This document shows, piece by piece, positions 507 to 57,755 of a stretch of 64,000 bases of DNA. Position numbers and translations under genes: made by a program. Numbering within the stretch: position 1 is the first letter of the stretch; every line of letters starts with the position of its first letter. The DNA lies in the NCBI GenBank assembly GCA_965262115.1, contig OZ253496.1:1216001-1280000 (forward strand). Reading direction: 5' to 3'. The notes under the pieces are model-generated. The model was given only the letters and a program-made list of their open reading frames with translations. It was not told the DNA's origin and searched no databases. This DNA comes from Nitrospinales bacterium (GTDB lineage: Bacteria; Nitrospinota; Nitrospinia; Nitrospinales; VA-1).

Positions 507-1618
507 ATGAGAGTTTATGCCCAACTTACCCAAGGACAACGATACCAGATTGAAGCACTCTTAAAAACGGGTCATAACCAAACAATGATAGCCAAAGTAC
601 TTACCGTCCATAAATCAACGATCAGCCGTGAGATCAGACGTAATCGAGGTCGCCGTGGTTACCGGCCAAAACAAGCCCAGGAGAGGGCTGTGATGCGCCG
701 TTTAATCAAATCCGTACCGCGCATCGGTTTTTCTACCTGGACCATGGTGGACTCCCTGATCAAACAAGACTGGAGCCCGGAACAGATCTCAGGCCGTTTG
801 TTCAAAGAACAAGGCATTTCGATCAGTCACGAACGCATTTACCTCTATATTTACCAGAACAAACAACAAGGCGGTGATCTTCATAATCACCTGCGTTGCC
901 AGAAAAAACGCCGCAAACGTTATGGTAAACAAGATCGCCGGGGACGCATTCCCAACCGCATCAGCATTGATAAACGCCCGGCTATCGTTAACAACAAGTC
1001 CAGGATCGGTGACTGGGAAGGCGATCTCATCATTGGCAACGGACACCGGGGGGTCATCGCCACCCTTGTAGAACGCAAAACCAAATATACGGTTCTGGCC
1101 AAATCGAACACCCAACAAGCCCGGTCGGTACGCCAAACCCTCGAACAAGGACTTAGGCCTCATAGAAACAGGGTTCACACAATCACCTGTGACAACGGGC
1201 TGGAGTTTGCCGAACACCAGAAAATGGCGCAATCCCTGTCGGCTAATATCTACTTTGCCCATCCTTATGCTTCTTGGGAACGAGACCTTTGCATAAGTCG
1301 AAAAATCGAAGAATCTAGATGCTTCGACAAGCTCAGCATGACAATACTGGGCCATTTTGTCATTCTGAGAAACAAGGTGACGAAGAATCTCGGGTTATGC
1401 AAAGGTCTCCTTGGGAACGGGGCCTGAACGAAAACACCCATGGACTCATTCGACAATATTTACCAAAATCACCGCCCCTGAATAACATCACCCACAAGAA
1501 ACTGGGCACCATCATGGATCAACTCAATCATCGACCCAGAAAAACACTCGACTTTAAAACACCCTGTGAACTATTCTTCAAAAAACAAACTTTACTAACT
1601 GTTGCACTTACTAGTTGA
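507..1618 (+). pseudogene. IS30-family transposase interrupted by a MITE
   Basis: HKSTISREIRRN HTH, WSPEQI, GDWEGD, DNGLEF; removing 1282-1418 restores YASWERGLNENTHGLIRQYLPK...NHRPRKTLDFKTP. Confidence 0.95.
1282..1409. mobile_element. 128-bp MITE (family A) with 15-bp perfect TIR and 9-bp TSD
   Basis: GAGACCTTTGCATAA (1282-1296) and TTATGCAAAGGTCTC (1395-1409); TSD CTTGGGAAC at 1273-1281 and 1410-1418. Confidence 0.95.
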
Positions 1619-2274: not shown

Positions 2275-3810
2275 ATGAAAAGCGTTAACCATAAAGCCAA
2301 AACAATTATTGCCCTATATGCGCTCTGTTTCTTTCTGGCAGTTCCCCTCCCCGCAAGCGTCGAAGCTAACGAAAAGGGCATCCCCCTGTTCCAGAAGAAA
2401 ATCAAAAAAATCCTTTCCAGTTCCTGTCTGAGAAAAAAAAATTTTGGTATAAAAATTTACTCGCTGGATCGTGGCGAATCCCTTTTCGAATTACGCGGGG
2501 AAAAGCTATTCATTCCCGCCTCGAATTTAAAAGTTCTCACTACTGCCGTTGCGCTTGAAGTCCTTGGCCCAAATTACCGTTTTCCAACACGGCTCTATAC
2601 AGATGGTACCTTGAAAGATGACGTGTTAAACGGCAATCTTTATATCAAGGGTTATGGCGATCCCAAGTTTGTCACAGAGCAAATGTGGCTACTGGTCAAC
2701 GAATTAAAAAATCTTCCGGTGCGTGAAATCACTGGAAACATTATTGGCGACGATTCTTTCTTCGATGACAGGAAACGAGTGAAGACCTGGATCAAGAATC
2801 CAGGCGCAGAGGCTTATGAGGCCCCCTTAGGCGCACTGTCTTTCAACTTCAACACGGTCCAGGCTTTTGTGAGCCCCGGCCCGAAAGCGGGGAGCAAACC
2901 GAAGATCGTTATCGAACCCGATACCGAATACATCACTCTCGACAATCAAGCCAGAACCCTTAAACCCGGCAAACGCAACCGGCTGATTGTCAACCGGTTG
3001 GACCGCAATGGATTTGATGAGATCACGGTTTCAGGAGGAATCCGTCTCGACCAGCCTCGGGCTCAGTATTTCTTAAACATTACCGACCCCACCCTATACA
3101 CCCTGAGCACACTGAAAAAATACCTGGGATATGCAGGCATCCAGTTCCTAGGCAAAATCGAGCAGGGAATAGTTCCTGCAGCAGCGATGGAATTATTAAC
3201 TCACGAGTCAGAACCCCTTACATTGGCGCTTCAGGGTCTCAACAAGTTCAGCAATAACTTTGTGGCGGAACAGATTTTAAAAACCATCGGGGCTGAGAAA
3301 TATGGTCCGCCCGGCACCACCCTGAAAGGTCTTAAAGCTTTTGAAGAGTATCTGACAGAACTGGGATACCGACCGGATCAATACAAGGTTCTCGATGGTT
3401 CCGGTTTGTCCCGGAAAAACCGCTTGTCGCCGCAAATGATTGTTGATGTCCTCCGCTATGTCAAGAACGACCTGGGAGTGTACCCTGAGTTTGTTTCTGC
3501 TTTGGGTGTGATGGGGGTGGATGGAAATGTAAAAAACAGAATGCGTGGGGTAAAAAGTTCGGAGCGAGCACGGGTTAAAACCGGCACCCTGAATTTTGTC
3601 AGCGCGCTTTCCGGTTATTTTCAATCCCGGGACGGAGAAACTTTTGCTTTCTCTATTTTAATGAATGGCTTGAAATGCTCTAACGGCAGGATCAAAAAAC
3701 TACATGACCAGATCATCCGGGAAGGGTTGCACTTTCGACGCATTCCTACCGGCAGTGTCATTTCCGAAAAACAGGGAAACCCTCCACCTACTTCAGATCC
3801 AGCTCTTTAA
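2275..3810 (+). CDS. dacB: D-alanyl-D-alanine carboxypeptidase/endopeptidase (PBP4, peptidase S13)
   Basis: Signal peptide; SxxK (PASNLK), SNN, DGSGLSR and KTG motifs. Confidence 0.95.
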   Translation: MKSVNHKAKTIIALYALCFFLAVPLPASVEANEKGIPLFQKKIKKILSSSCLRKKNFGIKIYSLDRGESLFELRGEKLFIPASNLKVLTTAVALEVLGPNYRFPTRLYTDGTLKDDVLNGNLYIKGYGDPKFVTEQMWLLVNELKNLPVREITGNIIGDDSFFDDRKRVKTWIKNPGAEAYEAPLGALSFNFNTVQAFVSPGPKAGSKPKIVIEPDTEYITLDNQARTLKPGKRNRLIVNRLDRNGFDEITVSGGIRLDQPRAQYFLNITDPTLYTLSTLKKYLGYAGIQFLGKIEQGIVPAAAMELLTHESEPLTLALQGLNKFSNNFVAEQILKTIGAEKYGPPGTTLKGLKAFEEYLTELGYRPDQYKVLDGSGLSRKNRLSPQMIVDVLRYVKNDLGVYPEFVSALGVMGVDGNVKNRMRGVKSSERARVKTGTLNFVSALSGYFQSRDGETFAFSILMNGLKCSNGRIKKLHDQIIREGLHFRRIPTGSVISEKQGNPPPTSDPAL

Positions 3811-3822
3811 AGACCCTCTGAC

Positions 3823-4578
3823 TTAACCGCCAAAAACCTTGCGGTTTTCCTTGCGGTCTTCTTCCAGAATTTTTTTCCAATCCCTTTTCACATGGGGAGC
3901 TGCTAGAAAATCCTCATAAATGGATTTCGCCAGTTCCATGCGGTCAATGCCTTCCGGCGCGACTTGGATATCCAACTGCGCCAGGGCCATGTCAAAGTCC
4001 CGATCCAATAAGGAAGCGGAATCCATATCACATTCTTTCAGCGCCTGACGAACGGTCGCGGGGTCCTGACCAAAACGTCTTGCCACTTCATTGAGGTTGG
4101 AAGGCTTATATTCTTTTTTAGGTCCAATGCCCAAATGATAGGCACAGAACAAGCTGAAAGCATCCAGATTCCCGGTCAATGGCTTTTCCGAGACAGACGG
4201 ATTTTTCGCCGCGGAGGTCTCAACAGGCCGCCTTGAAGTCGGCGCCGTTCTTCCATTGCCCCTGCCAGATCTTTCCTGATAGGGTGGTTTTTGCCCATTC
4301 GGGTTACCGTCATTGTTGCGTTTTTGGCGATACGGATTCTTGCCGGTTTGCGGTTTGCGGGTATTGCTGGAACCCGACTTGTTTTTGCTAGCTATGCTGA
4401 TGTGAGAAGTCAATGCCTGGGAAGAAGAAGGACTAGAGGAAACCCATGGATGGATTCCGCCTTTCCTCTGCCCAGAGTTTTGGTTTTGATTTCTTCCGGA
4501 GGCGTTGCCCTGGCAGTTTTGATTTTGAGGTTTCCGCAGGTTGCTCCCGTTTCTTCTAAATGAGCCTGTTTTTTTCAA
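3823..4578 (-). CDS. Hypothetical protein: low-complexity N/Q/R/S-rich N-terminus plus folded C-terminal domain with an HTH-like segment
   Basis: 251-aa ORF from TTG; C-terminal LFCAYHLGI...NLNEVARRFG; start uncertain. Confidence 0.7.
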   Translation of the reverse strand: MKKTGSFRRNGSNLRKPQNQNCQGNASGRNQNQNSGQRKGGIHPWVSSSPSSSQALTSHISIASKNKSGSSNTRKPQTGKNPYRQKRNNDGNPNGQKPPYQERSGRGNGRTAPTSRRPVETSAAKNPSVSEKPLTGNLDAFSLFCAYHLGIGPKKEYKPSNLNEVARRFGQDPATVRQALKECDMDSASLLDRDFDMALAQLDIQVAPEGIDRMELAKSIYEDFLAAPHVKRDWKKILEEDRKENRKVFGG

Positions 4579-14545: not shown

Positions 14546-14667
14546 TGTGATATTTCTTCCTCAACTTTCATGCCCGGTACGGGTACTTTGTAAAAGAGGG
14601 GTTCATTGAAGCTCCCCCTTCTATGAAGTATCCGTTCTGGGCACGAGGGCCAGGGTTAAATATCACG
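14546..14667. repeat. Two oppositely oriented copies of the ~39-nt mini-element (14546-14585 +, 14629-14667 -), each interrupting a palindrome
   Basis: TGTGATATT...TGCCCGGTACGGGTA; removing 14629-14667 restores the perfect stem CCCCCTTC-TAT-GAAGGGGG. Confidence 0.85.
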
Positions 14668-14708
14668 GGGGTTTGGGGGGATTTGATTTTCCTGCTTTTC
14701 TCAAAGTA

Positions 14709-16706
14709 TCACTCCGCGCTCTCAATTCCTTCTATCGCAACTGTCAATTCGTCCCATTCCTGCATCAGGATTTTCTCCTCCGCCTTTAGCGTTTTCTGTT
14801 CCTGCAAAGTTTCCAATAAAAAGGTTTTCTGGTCTTCCTCATAAATACCGACATCGGTAAACCGCGCTTGCAGGGCTTCATTCGTGGACATTAAAACCTC
14901 TAATCGGGACTCCACTTTAGCTAATCTCGTTTGCAGGGGTTTCAGGTTTTTATAGCGCTGGTTGCGTTCTTCGGCTTCCTTTTTTTTTCGCTCCCTGTTC
15001 AACTGCGACGAAGAAAGTTCCTTCCCCGGGCCTGAAGAAACTTCAACATCCTGAACCTCTTTTGATTTCGCCCATTCATAGTCACTGTAATGGCCGGGAT
15101 ACTCCTTAACCGCTCCCCCTTCCACTTCCCACACCCGGTTGATAAATCCATCGAGAAAAAACCTGTCATGAGAAATGACGACCAGACTGCCTTCATAATC
15201 CGAGAGCACCGCCGCCAAATGTTCACGCGACCGCATATCCAGATGGTTGGTCGGTTCATCAAACAAAATCAGTGAAGGCGGAGAACCGCCGCCGGTAACT
15301 GGCAAAGACTTTTTACCGCTAGTAACCATTCTTCTCGGCTTAACAGGCTCTTGCAAGTTGCCACCGCACAACATTCGCGCCAGGGCCAGCCGGGAGCGCT
15401 CCCCTCCTGACAGGACAGAAACTTTTTTCTCCACATCCTCCCCGGTAAACAAAAACGCCCCAAGAATATTTCGTTTTGCAGTGAGCAGGAGCCCCGGCGC
15501 AGACTCTTCCAGTGATTGAAAAACCGTATGGTTGAAGTTCAACGTCTCGCCCTGGTGCTGGGCAAAATAGGAACGGGAAACATTAGCACCAAGTTTTATT
15601 TCCCCTTCATCCGGATGAAGAGCACCTGCCATCAGTTTCAGGAGGGTGGATTTCCCCGCGCCGTTCTCACCCACCAGCGCCACTTTCCAACCCCTTTCCA
15701 AATTGATGAAAAAATTCTGGTATACATTGAGGGACCCATAACTTTTGCAGACCTCCTTCACCTCCAGAACATGACGCCCTGTTCTCACCGGCTGAGGAAA
15801 ACGAAAGTGAATCGTTTTTGTACCCTGGGTCGTTTGTACCCGCTCCATTTTTTCCAGCATTTTTATCCGGCTTTGCACCTGGGTGGCCTTGGTGTTTTTG
15901 GCGCGAAACCTTTCTATAAACCGTTCCACCTCGGCAATTTTGCGGCCCTGGTTAGCAGCCTGGGACTCCAGCAACTCCGCCCTCTCCTGCTTCTGCTTTT
16001 CGTAGTCATCATAATTTCCGCTATAAACCGAAAGCGATCCACGGTCCAACTCAATGATCCGGCTTGCCAGGGAATTTAAAAATCTGCGGTCATGAGAAAT
16101 GAGCAAGACACTGCCCTCATAAGATTTCAGAAACGATTCCAGCCAGACCACCGATCGCAAATCCAGATGGTTGGACGGCTCGTCCAGCAGCAGGACATCG
16201 GGACTCTGCAACAACAAACGCGAAAGCTCGCACCGCATTCTCCAGCCACCGGATAACTGGTCAAGCGGTTGATCCCACTTTTCAGGTTTGATTCCCAGTC
16301 CCAGAAGGATGATTTTTGCCCGAGCCTCTCGATCATAGCCTCCCAGACGTTCAAACTCGTGTTGCAGGTCTCCATATCGTTCATGATAAGTCTGGTCCGA
16401 TTCCAACCGCTCCATTGCAGTTTTTACTTTAAGAAAATGTGGATCGCCCAGCACCACCCTTTCGAGAACCGTTTCGCTTCCCCCTTCCAGTTCCTGTTCC
16501 AGCAAACCAAAACGCAGGCCCTTTCTAAGAGTCACCTTGCCTGCGTCCGGCAGGGTTTTTCCTGTTATCACTTTAAAGAGCGTGGTCTTGCCGGTACCAT
16601 TTTCACCCACCAGCCCCACCTTCTCCTTGGGACGCAGGTGGAAACTGACCTCCTCAAAGAGCACCTTGGAACCAAATTGTAAAACTACTTTCTCAACAAA
16701 TATCAT
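14709..16706 (-). CDS. ABC-F family ribosome-associated ATPase (YheS/Uup-like) with an in-frame repeat insertion
   Basis: Two ABC domains (GENGTGKT, LSGG, DEPSNHLD; GENGAGKST, DEPTNHLD); inter-ABC linker; no TM; C-terminal coiled coil. Confidence 0.95.
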   Translation of the reverse strand: MIFVEKVVLQFGSKVLFEEVSFHLRPKEKVGLVGENGTGKTTLFKVITGKTLPDAGKVTLRKGLRFGLLEQELEGGSETVLERVVLGDPHFLKVKTAMERLESDQTYHERYGDLQHEFERLGGYDREARAKIILLGLGIKPEKWDQPLDQLSGGWRMRCELSRLLLQSPDVLLLDEPSNHLDLRSVVWLESFLKSYEGSVLLISHDRRFLNSLASRIIELDRGSLSVYSGNYDDYEKQKQERAELLESQAANQGRKIAEVERFIERFRAKNTKATQVQSRIKMLEKMERVQTTQGTKTIHFRFPQPVRTGRHVLEVKEVCKSYGSLNVYQNFFINLERGWKVALVGENGAGKSTLLKLMAGALHPDEGEIKLGANVSRSYFAQHQGETLNFNHTVFQSLEESAPGLLLTAKRNILGAFLFTGEDVEKKVSVLSGGERSRLALARMLCGGNLQEPVKPRRMVTSGKKSLPVTGGGSPPSLILFDEPTNHLDMRSREHLAAVLSDYEGSLVVISHDRFFLDGFINRVWEVEGGAVKEYPGHYSDYEWAKSKEVQDVEVSSGPGKELSSSQLNRERKKKEAEERNQRYKNLKPLQTRLAKVESRLEVLMSTNEALQARFTDVGIYEEDQKTFLLETLQEQKTLKAEEKILMQEWDELTVAIEGIESAE

Positions 16707-46227: not shown

Positions 46228-46348
46228 CACTCGGCGTGGGGCCGACTGGCAAGAGCCCGTAAAACCGAGAGCATCGTTGCTAGCGGTCGTGATATTCTTC
46301 CTTAACTTTCGTGCCCCGGAGGGGTAAAAAAAGCTATTGCAAGTTACC
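46228..46348. repeat. Family B element carrying a 39-nt mini-element (46288-46326); overlaps the aroDE stop codon
   Basis: Imperfect TIR GGCCGACTGGCAAGAGC and GCTATTGCAAGTTACC. Confidence 0.85.
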
Positions 46349-48281: not shown

Positions 48282-48801
48282 ACGGGCAGATAGCAATAGC
48301 CCATTGAGCCTAAAGCATCTTTGCTAGCTGTATGTGATATTCTATCTAAACCTTCGTGAGCCTGTGATATCCCTTCCATAAATTTCATGCCCGGAACGGG
48401 TAGCAGAGGTAAAGACAAATAATAAGCATAACTCGCAGAATTCAACAGCAAAACCTTCTAGATTGCTTCACTCCGTTCGCAATGACGACTTATGCAAAAC
48501 TCTCCCCGACAAGGGGAAGTTATTAAAGTATTGCGCTTGAGGGCTTATTCTGCTTTACGGGCAATGCAGTGCTGGCCCCACGCCTAGCAGGGTGCTGAAA
48601 AACTCCCGAAGTTGTCATCATCGAGGAGCCGAAGGCGACGAAGGATATCGAAGTCCCTTATAAATCAAAAGACGGGATTCTTCACTCCGTTCGCAATGAC
48701 GACTTATGCAAAACTCTCCCCGACAAGGGGAAGTTATTAAAGTATTGCGCTTGAGGGCTTAGTCTGCTTTACGGGCAATGCAGTGCTGGCCCTCCGCCTA
48801 G
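48282..48801. repeat. Repeat cluster: family B, nested 39-nt elements and a 122-bp direct duplication (48466-48587 / 48680-48801)
   Basis: 119/122 identical copies, each holding a family A right end; family C left end GGGTGCTGAAAAACTC between them. Confidence 0.9.
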
Positions 48802-51165: not shown

Positions 51166-51519
51166 GAGAGTTTTGCGTAACCCCGGATTACCCCTACGGG
51201 GCACAAAGTTTAGGGAAAAATATCACGTCTTCGTCACGTTGTTCCTCAGAATGACAAAATGGCCTTGCGCTGTCATTCTGAGGAACAACGTGACGAAGAA
51301 TCTGAGAAAAAGGGGGACAACCTGAAACCTTCTGGTTGTAACCCCAGCCCTCTCTGAAAAAGGCGGAAGCAGAAATCCCCCCTCCCTTCACAGGGAGGGG
51401 CCAGGGGAGGGTTGGATTATGAATTCCGTAAAAATAATCCACACCCCTCCGCGGCTACGCCTTGCCTCCCCTCATGAGAGGGGAGGATCAATGAGAATCT
51501 CAGGTTATGCAAAGCTCTC
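51166..51519. mobile_element. 354-bp composite family A MITE with 9-bp TSD
   Basis: GAGAGTTTTGCGTAACC and GGTTATGCAAAGCTCTC; TSD CTTGTCAGG at 51157-51165 and 51520-51528; perfect 29-bp stem 51228-51256/51271-51299. Confidence 0.93.
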
Positions 51520-57619: not shown

Positions 57620-57755
57620 GCTAACCGCAGAGGCTGTGATATTTCCAGCATTAACTTTACCCTTTCAGGGCATGAAGACAAATAAAGAGGGCATCACACG
57701 TATACCCCGCAAGGGTAAAAAAGCTATTGCAAATTACTAGCGGAGGTTCTCCGCA
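57620..57755. repeat. Family B end plus nested ~39-nt mini-elements
   Basis: TGTGATATT...CCCTTTCAGGG; CCCCGCAAGGGTAAAAAAGCTATTGCAAATTACTAGCGGAGGTTCTCCGC. Confidence 0.75.

Follow-up and report, generated by a model that had tools for sequence, protein, structure and literature searches.

Bacterial genomes carry REP-like and other very small repeats, and how such sequences spread is a long-standing open question; as far as the available sections of one REP study go (PMC8266576), the mechanism of REP spread has not been elucidated. The window, a stretch of 64,000 nucleotides from a Nitrospinales bacterium, raises this question for a unit of 39-41 bases. The sequence-only reading described it as a minimal non-autonomous element without terminal inverted repeats (TIR), which enters other repeats as well as copies of itself and makes no target site duplication (TSD), and these features are supported. 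Is the unit mobile in its own right, and how could it move?

All seven copies claimed for the window are present, two of them nested (Table 1), and the strict pattern gave four matches in it against 0.03 expected from shuffles. The copy placed at about 48332 (+) is real, but it is an outer unit of 48333-48411 split by an inner one, and the copy placed at 57635-57672 (+) is likewise real but extends over 57635-57717, split by an inner unit in reverse orientation. Moreover, the four empty sites proposed from the letters can be read within the window. Deleting 14629-14667 yields CCCCCTTC-TAT-GAAGGGGG, a stem of 8 bp, and the three other empty strings are listed in Table 1. A contig from run X1 skips 14629-14674 and has 8 other letters instead (43 letters on the shorter side). 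Besides the copies, an IS30-like ORF at 507-1427 of the window has its 3' end broken by a repeat module (about 1282-1410), and a place similar to this ORF in the relative G013 also carries the unit.

Table 1. Unit copies in the window and related features in its genome, G000 (contig C1). Window positions are given for the unit copies and their empty forms; a slash marks the insertion point.
Feature	Position	Strand	Details
Unit	14546..14585	+	40 nt; first base T, partner A; G-C closing pair, GTA loop; inside CCCT/CTTT hairpin repeat; empty form 51341-51353
Unit	14629..14667	-	39 nt; first base C, partner G; within 8-bp stem of a repeat like those flanking DUF559 genes
Unit	46288..46326	+	39 nt; C/G type, C-G closing pair, GGA loop; just beyond the 3' end of a - strand gene; empty form 15310-15322 (-)
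Outer unit, 5' part	48333..48362	+	ends TGAGCC; free units have TGCCCC
Inner 40-nt unit	48363..48402	+	inserted right before the loop of the outer unit
Outer unit, loop and 3' arm	48403..48411	+	completes the outer copy 48333-48411
Unit	51189..51227	-	39 nt; in a GTCATTCTGA-type repeat, at GAAGA/ATC; similar repeats flank small GIY-YIG genes; empty forms 1377-1389 (-) and 51290-51302 (-)
Outer unit, 5' part	57635..57657	+	site empty in G015, G001, G003, G002; filled in G013, G019, G007
Inner 41-nt unit, reverse orientation	57658..57698	-	T-A closing pair; missing from G013 and G019 (copy there uninterrupted)
Outer unit, 3' part with hairpin	57699..57717	+	bases beside the inner junction altered
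Exact empty orthologous sites	1807998, 2496677, 1074704, 2081146, 1335846		equal length
Exact empty orthologous site	1953690		unrelated indel 5 bases away
DUF559 genes	C1:2140509, 1034378, 377385, 1589978, 735444, 1582297, 660936		bracketed by repeats
IS110 copies, examples	C1:657570-658770; 1834461-1835640		from a set of 26 IS ends

The window's genome (G000) is one contig of 2.68 Mb. The genome-wide search that the sequence-only reading had proposed gave 322 whole copies by iterative removal (286 + 35 + 1), of which 36 became visible only once an inner copy had been removed; the reversed genome gave 6, so that a few of the 322 are false. Another 45 right ends stand alone (control 1). The other high-copy genomes are G007 and G013, the latter a 95%-identical relative, with 358 copies (control 6) in the 2.4 Mb of it that were compared. 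The length is 39, 40 or 41 nt in 755 of 776 unit records: the initial figure of about 39 nt holds for 434 of them, but 204 have 41 nt and 117 have 40.

The full pattern was found in 21 of the 23 genomes of the genus and in none of the 18 others sampled, and all the full-pattern loci listed (at least 80, from 14 of the 64 parts of the genome collection) come from Nitrospinota records. The hairpin half occurs patchily in the phylum (38 of 120 genomes, 7 of 30 genera). Phage-like contigs also carry the unit (L136, L475-L478, L485-L487, L503), and one viral contig of 50 kb has six hairpin matches; most hairpin-only matches in viral contigs have no 5' end and were for that reason treated as chance. 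In the plasmid and phage collections no match covered 80% or more of the unit. On one phage-like contig, a copy overlaps the final codons and the stop of a 166-aa ORF. Furthermore, a genome from a different family (G048, L508-L510) has four copies that start with CAAG and not CGTG; they occupy the same site of a GTCATCGCGAG repeat and likely derive from one founder. In L508 of the same genome, a head-to-tail array with a unit of roughly 60 bases lies at about 3615-3975, directly 3' of the stop codon of a gene.

The anatomy of the unit consists of a fixed 5' end (X-GTGATAT), a variable and pyrimidine-rich middle, and a fixed 3' end (TTC-Y-TGCCCN-GNA-N'GGGTA). The 5' part lacks a conserved stem. 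A hairpin of 6 bp, with TTC(A/G/T) as its foot and GNA as its loop, makes up the 3' end; it had been described as subterminal, but its stem and the unit end on the same base, and the hairpin is therefore terminal. The first base, X, can be C or T as first read, and also A.

Covariation was counted with a pattern that left both variable pairs and the loop unfixed, and all of the counts are inflated by relatedness among units. With this reservation, X pairs in Watson-Crick fashion with Y, the base preceding the hairpin, in 132 of 149 distinct units (T-A 75, C-G 45, A-T 11, G-C 1), at a spacing of about 23-25 bases. The closing pair N:N' is also Watson-Crick in 132 of these units, and the loop is GNA in 134. 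Among 615 distinct units from many sources, X:Y is paired in 523 (274 expected) and N:N' in 558 (319 expected), and where close neighbours differ at X, both pairings are kept in 142 of 250 pairs of units.

Owing to the X:Y pair, joining the 3' end to the 5' end lengthens the stem from 6 to 8 bp by the addition of X-G. In fact, the end-to-start junction folds into an 8-bp stem in all five common units that were folded, the opposite strand being weaker. The pairing and the joined stem point to a circular or head-to-tail single-stranded intermediate, and selection may thus act on the end-joined single strand, be it a circle, a tandem junction or a looped-out fold. Hairpin-primed synthesis copying X from Y would give the same pattern and also requires the ends together. 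Head-to-tail tandem junctions amount to 48 in G000 plus G013, all 48 downstream copies starting with T, and the unit type tracks the target. No circle was seen among the assembled contigs, which drop rare variants. In the CAAG copies of G048 the X:Y pair is kept and the second pair is lost, there being no G at position 2.

The fold also bears on the possibility that the unit spreads through an RNA copy, which a reverse transcriptase would write into nicked targets. Template-directed synthesis could give tandem additions, flank carry-over and no TSD, and a study of cyanobacterial small dispersed repeats (SDRs) reportedly suggested RNA-mediated spread. DNA hairpins with GNA loops are stable, however, and the three-base GNA loop with its covarying closing pair is a DNA-type fold. 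Moreover, the unit has no Rfam match at the gathering score, and the only reverse transcriptase match in G000 is broken (C1:50216-51029, two stops). Hence, this route appears very unlikely.

Mobility itself could be judged from orthologous sites. The relative G013 spans 67 of the 322 copies of G000; 39 are shared, 16 are otherwise different and 12 are near-empty in G013. Six of these 12 sites are without exactly the unit (Table 1), two differ by one more base and the remaining four align poorly. Conversely, 80 of the 358 copies of G013 are spanned, and one of six near-empty sites is clean. The presence/absence polymorphism that had been proposed as a check is thus observed, and the unit is almost certainly mobile, with exact ends. 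Polymorphism between genomes of 95% identity implies that the activity is recent. At the copies covered in runs X20, X21 and X23, no excised allele was seen among assembled contigs, which drop rare variants.

The same comparison speaks to the objection that the unit is a mere passenger in larger repeats and not itself mobile. Some composites do spread as blocks, as in an IS3 family in which 15 copies with 12 left flanks carry nearly the same unit. A passenger would always have the same flanks, but the 279 good copies of G000 fall into 133 target clusters, self-insertion took place at five or more positions within the unit and in both orientations, and the orthologous empty sites are exact. The passenger view can be considered refuted, with next to no probability left to it.

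Regarding the targets, 197 of 289 copies lie in repeated DNA, compared with 297 of 2000 non-coding controls, and the commonest host repeats resemble those flanking small GIY-YIG and DUF559 genes. Target preference is weak: over 158 clusters, G stands at -5 in 59%, a purine at -3 in 72%, A at -2 in 6% and A or T at +2 in 77%. A search for a base-pairing code between the unit, including its middle, and the target or flank gave nothing above a z of about 3, and neither a fixed position relative to target hairpins nor a target resembling the unit's end was found. Flank duplications of two or more bases match the shuffles (44 vs 39 of 645). One-base flank matches are in excess (281 vs 177); both bases are present in empty sites, and this excess is therefore not a duplication.

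It had also been suggested that an element of 39 nt would preserve reading frames. Only 434 of 776 records have that length, none of the 754 junctions tested lies within host coding sequence, and no in-frame insertion into a host gene was found; 16 protein matches at junctions are repeat-derived ORF extensions or the end of an IS30.

The genes beside the host repeats deserve mention on their own. G000 has seven full DUF559 genes, scattered over the contig and each bracketed by CCCCTCCC/GGGAGGGG-type hairpin repeats, an arrangement reminiscent of a system made up of a nuclease and its repeats. In L172, L171, L176, L173, L177 and L180, small GIY-YIG genes have repeats of the GTCATT type on both sides, as in the Ssn system.

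Insertion had been called precise. This is correct for the length of the insert, but the flanking bases are not always unchanged. In G000 and 2.4 Mb of G013, TGAGC is found at 21 of 30 filled loop sites and in 0 of 455 free units, TGG(C/T)AGCA at 19 of 23 filled and 1 of 105 empty sites, GTAGC at 15 of 17 filled sites and in 0 of 40 free units, and C at +2 at 36 of 52 filled and 0 of 29 empty sites. Loci from the collections, some of which duplicate places in the genomes used, do not enter these counts. In three orthologous pairs, representing two unrelated targets, positions -4/-3 read CC where the unit is absent and AG where it is present. Each filled-only variant resembles the natural flank of the unit in another repeat, an example being five filled GAGGAGCC/ sites in G013. 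Furthermore, near-identical units in unrelated targets are alike above background at bases -5 to +3 (0.30-0.57 vs 0.24-0.40); a sharper flank-identity signal seen at first was mostly due to one repeat family and became smaller after de-duplication. The simplest reading is a carry-over of a few donor flank bases, either at insertion or by later conversion. In two of the four target families, the spread of a whole composite fits as well.

These changes are an argument for a process without a dedicated transposase, in which a single-stranded unit with a few donor flank bases would anneal to a similar empty site. The X:Y fold would join the two arms and loop the unit out, and Ssn-like GIY-YIG and DUF559 nucleases might free the pieces. 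Filled-only variants that look like flanks from other repeats, the CC and AG alleles, the shared bases around near-identical units and the position of the host repeats beside nuclease genes all speak for annealing. Nevertheless, the flank sharing is modest, near-identical units stand in very different sites, the ends are exact at 133 target clusters, and conversion after insertion accounts for the same variants. SsnA, according to the portion of the source available (PMC11893778), cuts just upstream of its own repeat, whereas the unit lies inside repeats. The genes do not track copy number cleanly either: G007 has 87 hairpin matches and no DUF559 match, G004 (62 matches) and G012 (25) have no Ssn-like match in assemblies that are both fragmented, and Ssn-like genes occur in genomes without the unit. 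Annealing without a dedicated enzyme is a possible but less likely route.

The reading that we prefer, with about even confidence, is that of a non-autonomous unit of 39-41 bases that neither adds nor removes target bases, is moved in trans, as a single strand with its ends joined, by an enzyme that cleaves and joins single strands, and is then reshaped by recombination among copies. The written strand would fold as DNA, with its GNA triloop and a G-T wobble. X-G would then pair with C-Y and stack the 5' end on the 3' end, so that a circle of 39-41 nt or a tandem junction would be the selected unit. The GGGTA/XG junction would be cut open and linked to single-stranded DNA that is exposed, for the most part within other hairpin repeats, with a weak preference for G at -5, a purine at -3, a base other than A at -2 and mostly A/T at +2. 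Finally, recombination or conversion between copies would carry a few flank bases, make chimeras and collapse nests. The first interpretation of the element is partly supported in this respect, as the covariation argues for a single-stranded hairpin as the probable substrate.

By analogy with IS200/IS605 and RAYT, the chemistry would most likely be HUH-like. In the IS200/IS605 family the guide-paired bases lie 5' of the cut. The XG of the unit lies 3' of it, and this counts against the preferred reading, as do the filled-only flank variants, which clean strand transfer does not predict, and the X:Y bases that are unpaired in 92 of 615 units, together with the CAAG copies of G048. Nor was an enzyme found, and G009 has a Y1 domain and no copy of the unit. 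On the other hand, a hairpin, a guide and the absence of a TSD have their precedent in IS200/IS605 and RAYT, to judge by the parts of the literature available (PMC3333891, PMC8266576). According to the first of these, also seen in part, IS608 and ISDra2 prefer the lagging-strand template (PMC3333891); the unit is spread over the replichores without bias (167 vs 155 copies, with origin and terminus taken from GC skew), another point against the preferred reading.

In G000 the enzyme was sought through selected Pfam and NF families, a motif scan and the genes flanked by the unit. The HUH mobiliser first proposed was not borne out, since PF01797/NF047646 (Y1_Tnp, RAYT) has no match in G000 and no Y1_Tnp was found in G007 or G013. 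The IS91 families (PF04986, PF14319) gave nothing over the cut-off and one broken match below it, in a search whose positive controls were equally silent. The tyrosine recombinases of G013 are only two, of XerC/D size. A scan for HUH motifs left 20 HUH-like proteins common to G000 and G013, but Pfam identifies no transposase among them, and those that it leaves without a family, 10 in number, have the look of shadow frames or of unrelated proteins. NifU was the sole recurring candidate among genes flanked by the unit or by repeats and was rejected. Long versions enclosing an ORF had been suggested as something to look for, and none was found: the orphan ends led to decayed, nested or IS110-split copies instead, and the DNA between two copies of G048 holds no enzyme-like ORF. 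The enzyme may be a divergent or a housekeeping protein.

A RAYT or IS200/IS605 Y1 enzyme could also have made the insertions and have since been lost, or have been supplied by phages. The four bases of the hairpin foot that pair with an end resemble the Y1 guide rule, the unit occurs on phage-like contigs and as the six hairpin matches of the 50-kb viral contig, and it is scattered unevenly over the phylum (38 of 120 genomes, 7 of 30 genera). Against this, the activity is recent, yet the three best-assembled high-copy genomes have no Y1 domain, and the unit flanks none of the Y1 genes examined, among them the seven Y1 loci of relatives whose flanks were inspected. A lost or phage-borne Y1 enzyme is accordingly improbable. 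As a separate observation, six relatives have Y1 genes of 320-330 aa (L139-L144) flanked by GGGGTCAAGTC-type inverted repeats unrelated to the unit, without a match in G000 or in the stretches of G013 examined; with these repeats they resemble TIRYTs as described in the accessible part of PMC3733652.

Concerning known systems, no description of the unit family was found in the literature searched, which covers few subscription journals and no supplements. The unit works like hairpin-guided single-strand elements (IS200/IS605, REP-RAYT) but lacks several of their defining features. The closest in behaviour appear to be the cyanobacterial SDRs. Elhai et al. (2008) reportedly described SDR1-8 of the Nostocaceae as very small (21-27 nt), dispersed, lineage-restricted, nested and inside other repeats, with a structure inferred from compensatory changes and a mobiliser said to be unknown. 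The unit shares with the SDRs, as so described, the very small size, dispersal, nesting, location in other repeats and compensatory structure, and differs from them in length (39-41 nt against 21-27) and in host. To our knowledge, end-to-end pairing, flank carry-over and a loop-aimed IS110 have not been described for SDRs. SDR5 inserts in HIP1, according to the part of the source available (PMC5861425).

As far as the available parts of the sources describe them, REP, REPIN and BIME sequences with RAYT share with the unit an extragenic hairpin, four conserved bases at the 5' foot, a single-strand logic, hundreds of copies and their role as IS targets (PMC8266576, PMC3333891, PMC3116915). The unit differs in having TTC(A/G/T) as its foot and no GTAG or CGTC tag, in its hairpin being the very end, in the lack of a RAYT gene in G000, and in being a singlet with fixed ends and head-to-tail arrays and not an inverted doublet; it is singlets, not doublets, that were gained at orthologous sites. 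With IS200/IS605, in the section of PMC3333891 at hand, it shares the absence of TIR and TSD, a hairpin and an end that pairs with hairpin-foot bases, and the single-strand circle known from the family may be a further likeness. It has one terminal hairpin and not subterminal hairpins at both ends, no fixed target of 4-5 bases (the best position being G at -5, 59%), no replichore bias, and neither TnpA nor a parent element was found. The NTS, dRS3 and CGTC REPs of Ssn (GIY-YIG) systems, in the parts of PMC11893778 and PMC3733652 available, are similar as single-stranded hairpins with a G-M-A loop and no dedicated transposase known. Repeats of such a look are the unit's commonest hosts here, but the unit has no CGTC tag, brackets no nuclease gene and inserts inside those repeats. 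Finally, it is not a TIR-type MITE, since it has neither TIR nor TSD.

Since the family has exact ends, alleles with and without the insert, and two base pairs that covary, the smallest substrate required can be specified and put to the test. Should the end-joined intermediate prove real, few mobile DNA units would be smaller, and the enzyme responsible would be one that places short DNA in a target without leaving a scar.

Two insertion sequences are associated with the unit in G000. In an IS3 family of 15-17 copies (e.g. C1:1392020), the unit lies directly after the slippery site in 17 of 17 orfB-side motifs; the 15 copies with 12 different left flanks have it at one position, eight also hold an IS110 inside the unit, and no IS3 copy without the unit was found among the fetched loci. 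With the insert of 41 bases, the -1 frame acquires a stop, and the usual fused IS3 transposase presumably could not be made.

The second is an IS110 with 24 transposase matches (PF01548), a specific target, a DEDD domain and an upstream non-coding region with two target matches, the features of that family. Of its 26 right ends, 25 lie within the loop of the unit, with the unit's hairpin arm coming next. The two guide-like segments of the upstream region match the target, and they change in step with it: 21 copies fit a GAA loop and two a GCA loop, each as in its own site, and three left ends have no such segments. This pattern is that described for seekRNAs in the portion of PMC11187229 available, and is read here from sequence only. 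In the parts available, REP-targeting IS110 elements (ISPa11, PMC11187229; ISPpu9, PMC12288879) likewise have an upstream non-coding region with two short target matches and land in dispersed hairpins; they resemble the resident IS and not the unit. The resident IS110 is thus a parasite that targets the unit.

An IS110-type mobiliser was among the enzymes first proposed, and some points speak for the resident recombinase: it has 24 matches, its family inserts without TSD, and its site is 1-3 bases from the self-nesting hot spot. Its guide-like segments, however, match the unit's loop as a target, the IS junction is unlike that of the unit, and one guide cannot specify 133 target clusters. In addition, the IS110 domain occurs in 6 of the 23 genomes of the genus; G013 has one copy and it was not found in G019, G022, G018 or G004, all five genomes having 55 or more hairpin matches. 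Its absence from the searches of the last four argues that IS110 is not the mobiliser, a role that is largely refuted and hardly credible now.

What is measured in detail here is the end-to-end pair, the orthologous empty alleles with their flank changes, and an IS110 guide that tracks the loop. The family also shows parasitism in three layers: host repeats and an IS3 harbour the unit, and the unit in turn is the target of an IS110 with a guide that keeps in step with the loop. A bolder version of the preferred reading, which we put forward tentatively as possible and not as probable, is that elements of roughly 40 bases exist as dumbbell single-stranded minicircles, selected for their own end pairing and driven by a cleave-and-join activity outside the known transposase families, and that they became abundant enough for an RNA-guided IS110 to be programmed to land in them. 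A short remnant of an IS110 left end also stands beside the unit in a metagenome contig (L367, about 2000-2070).
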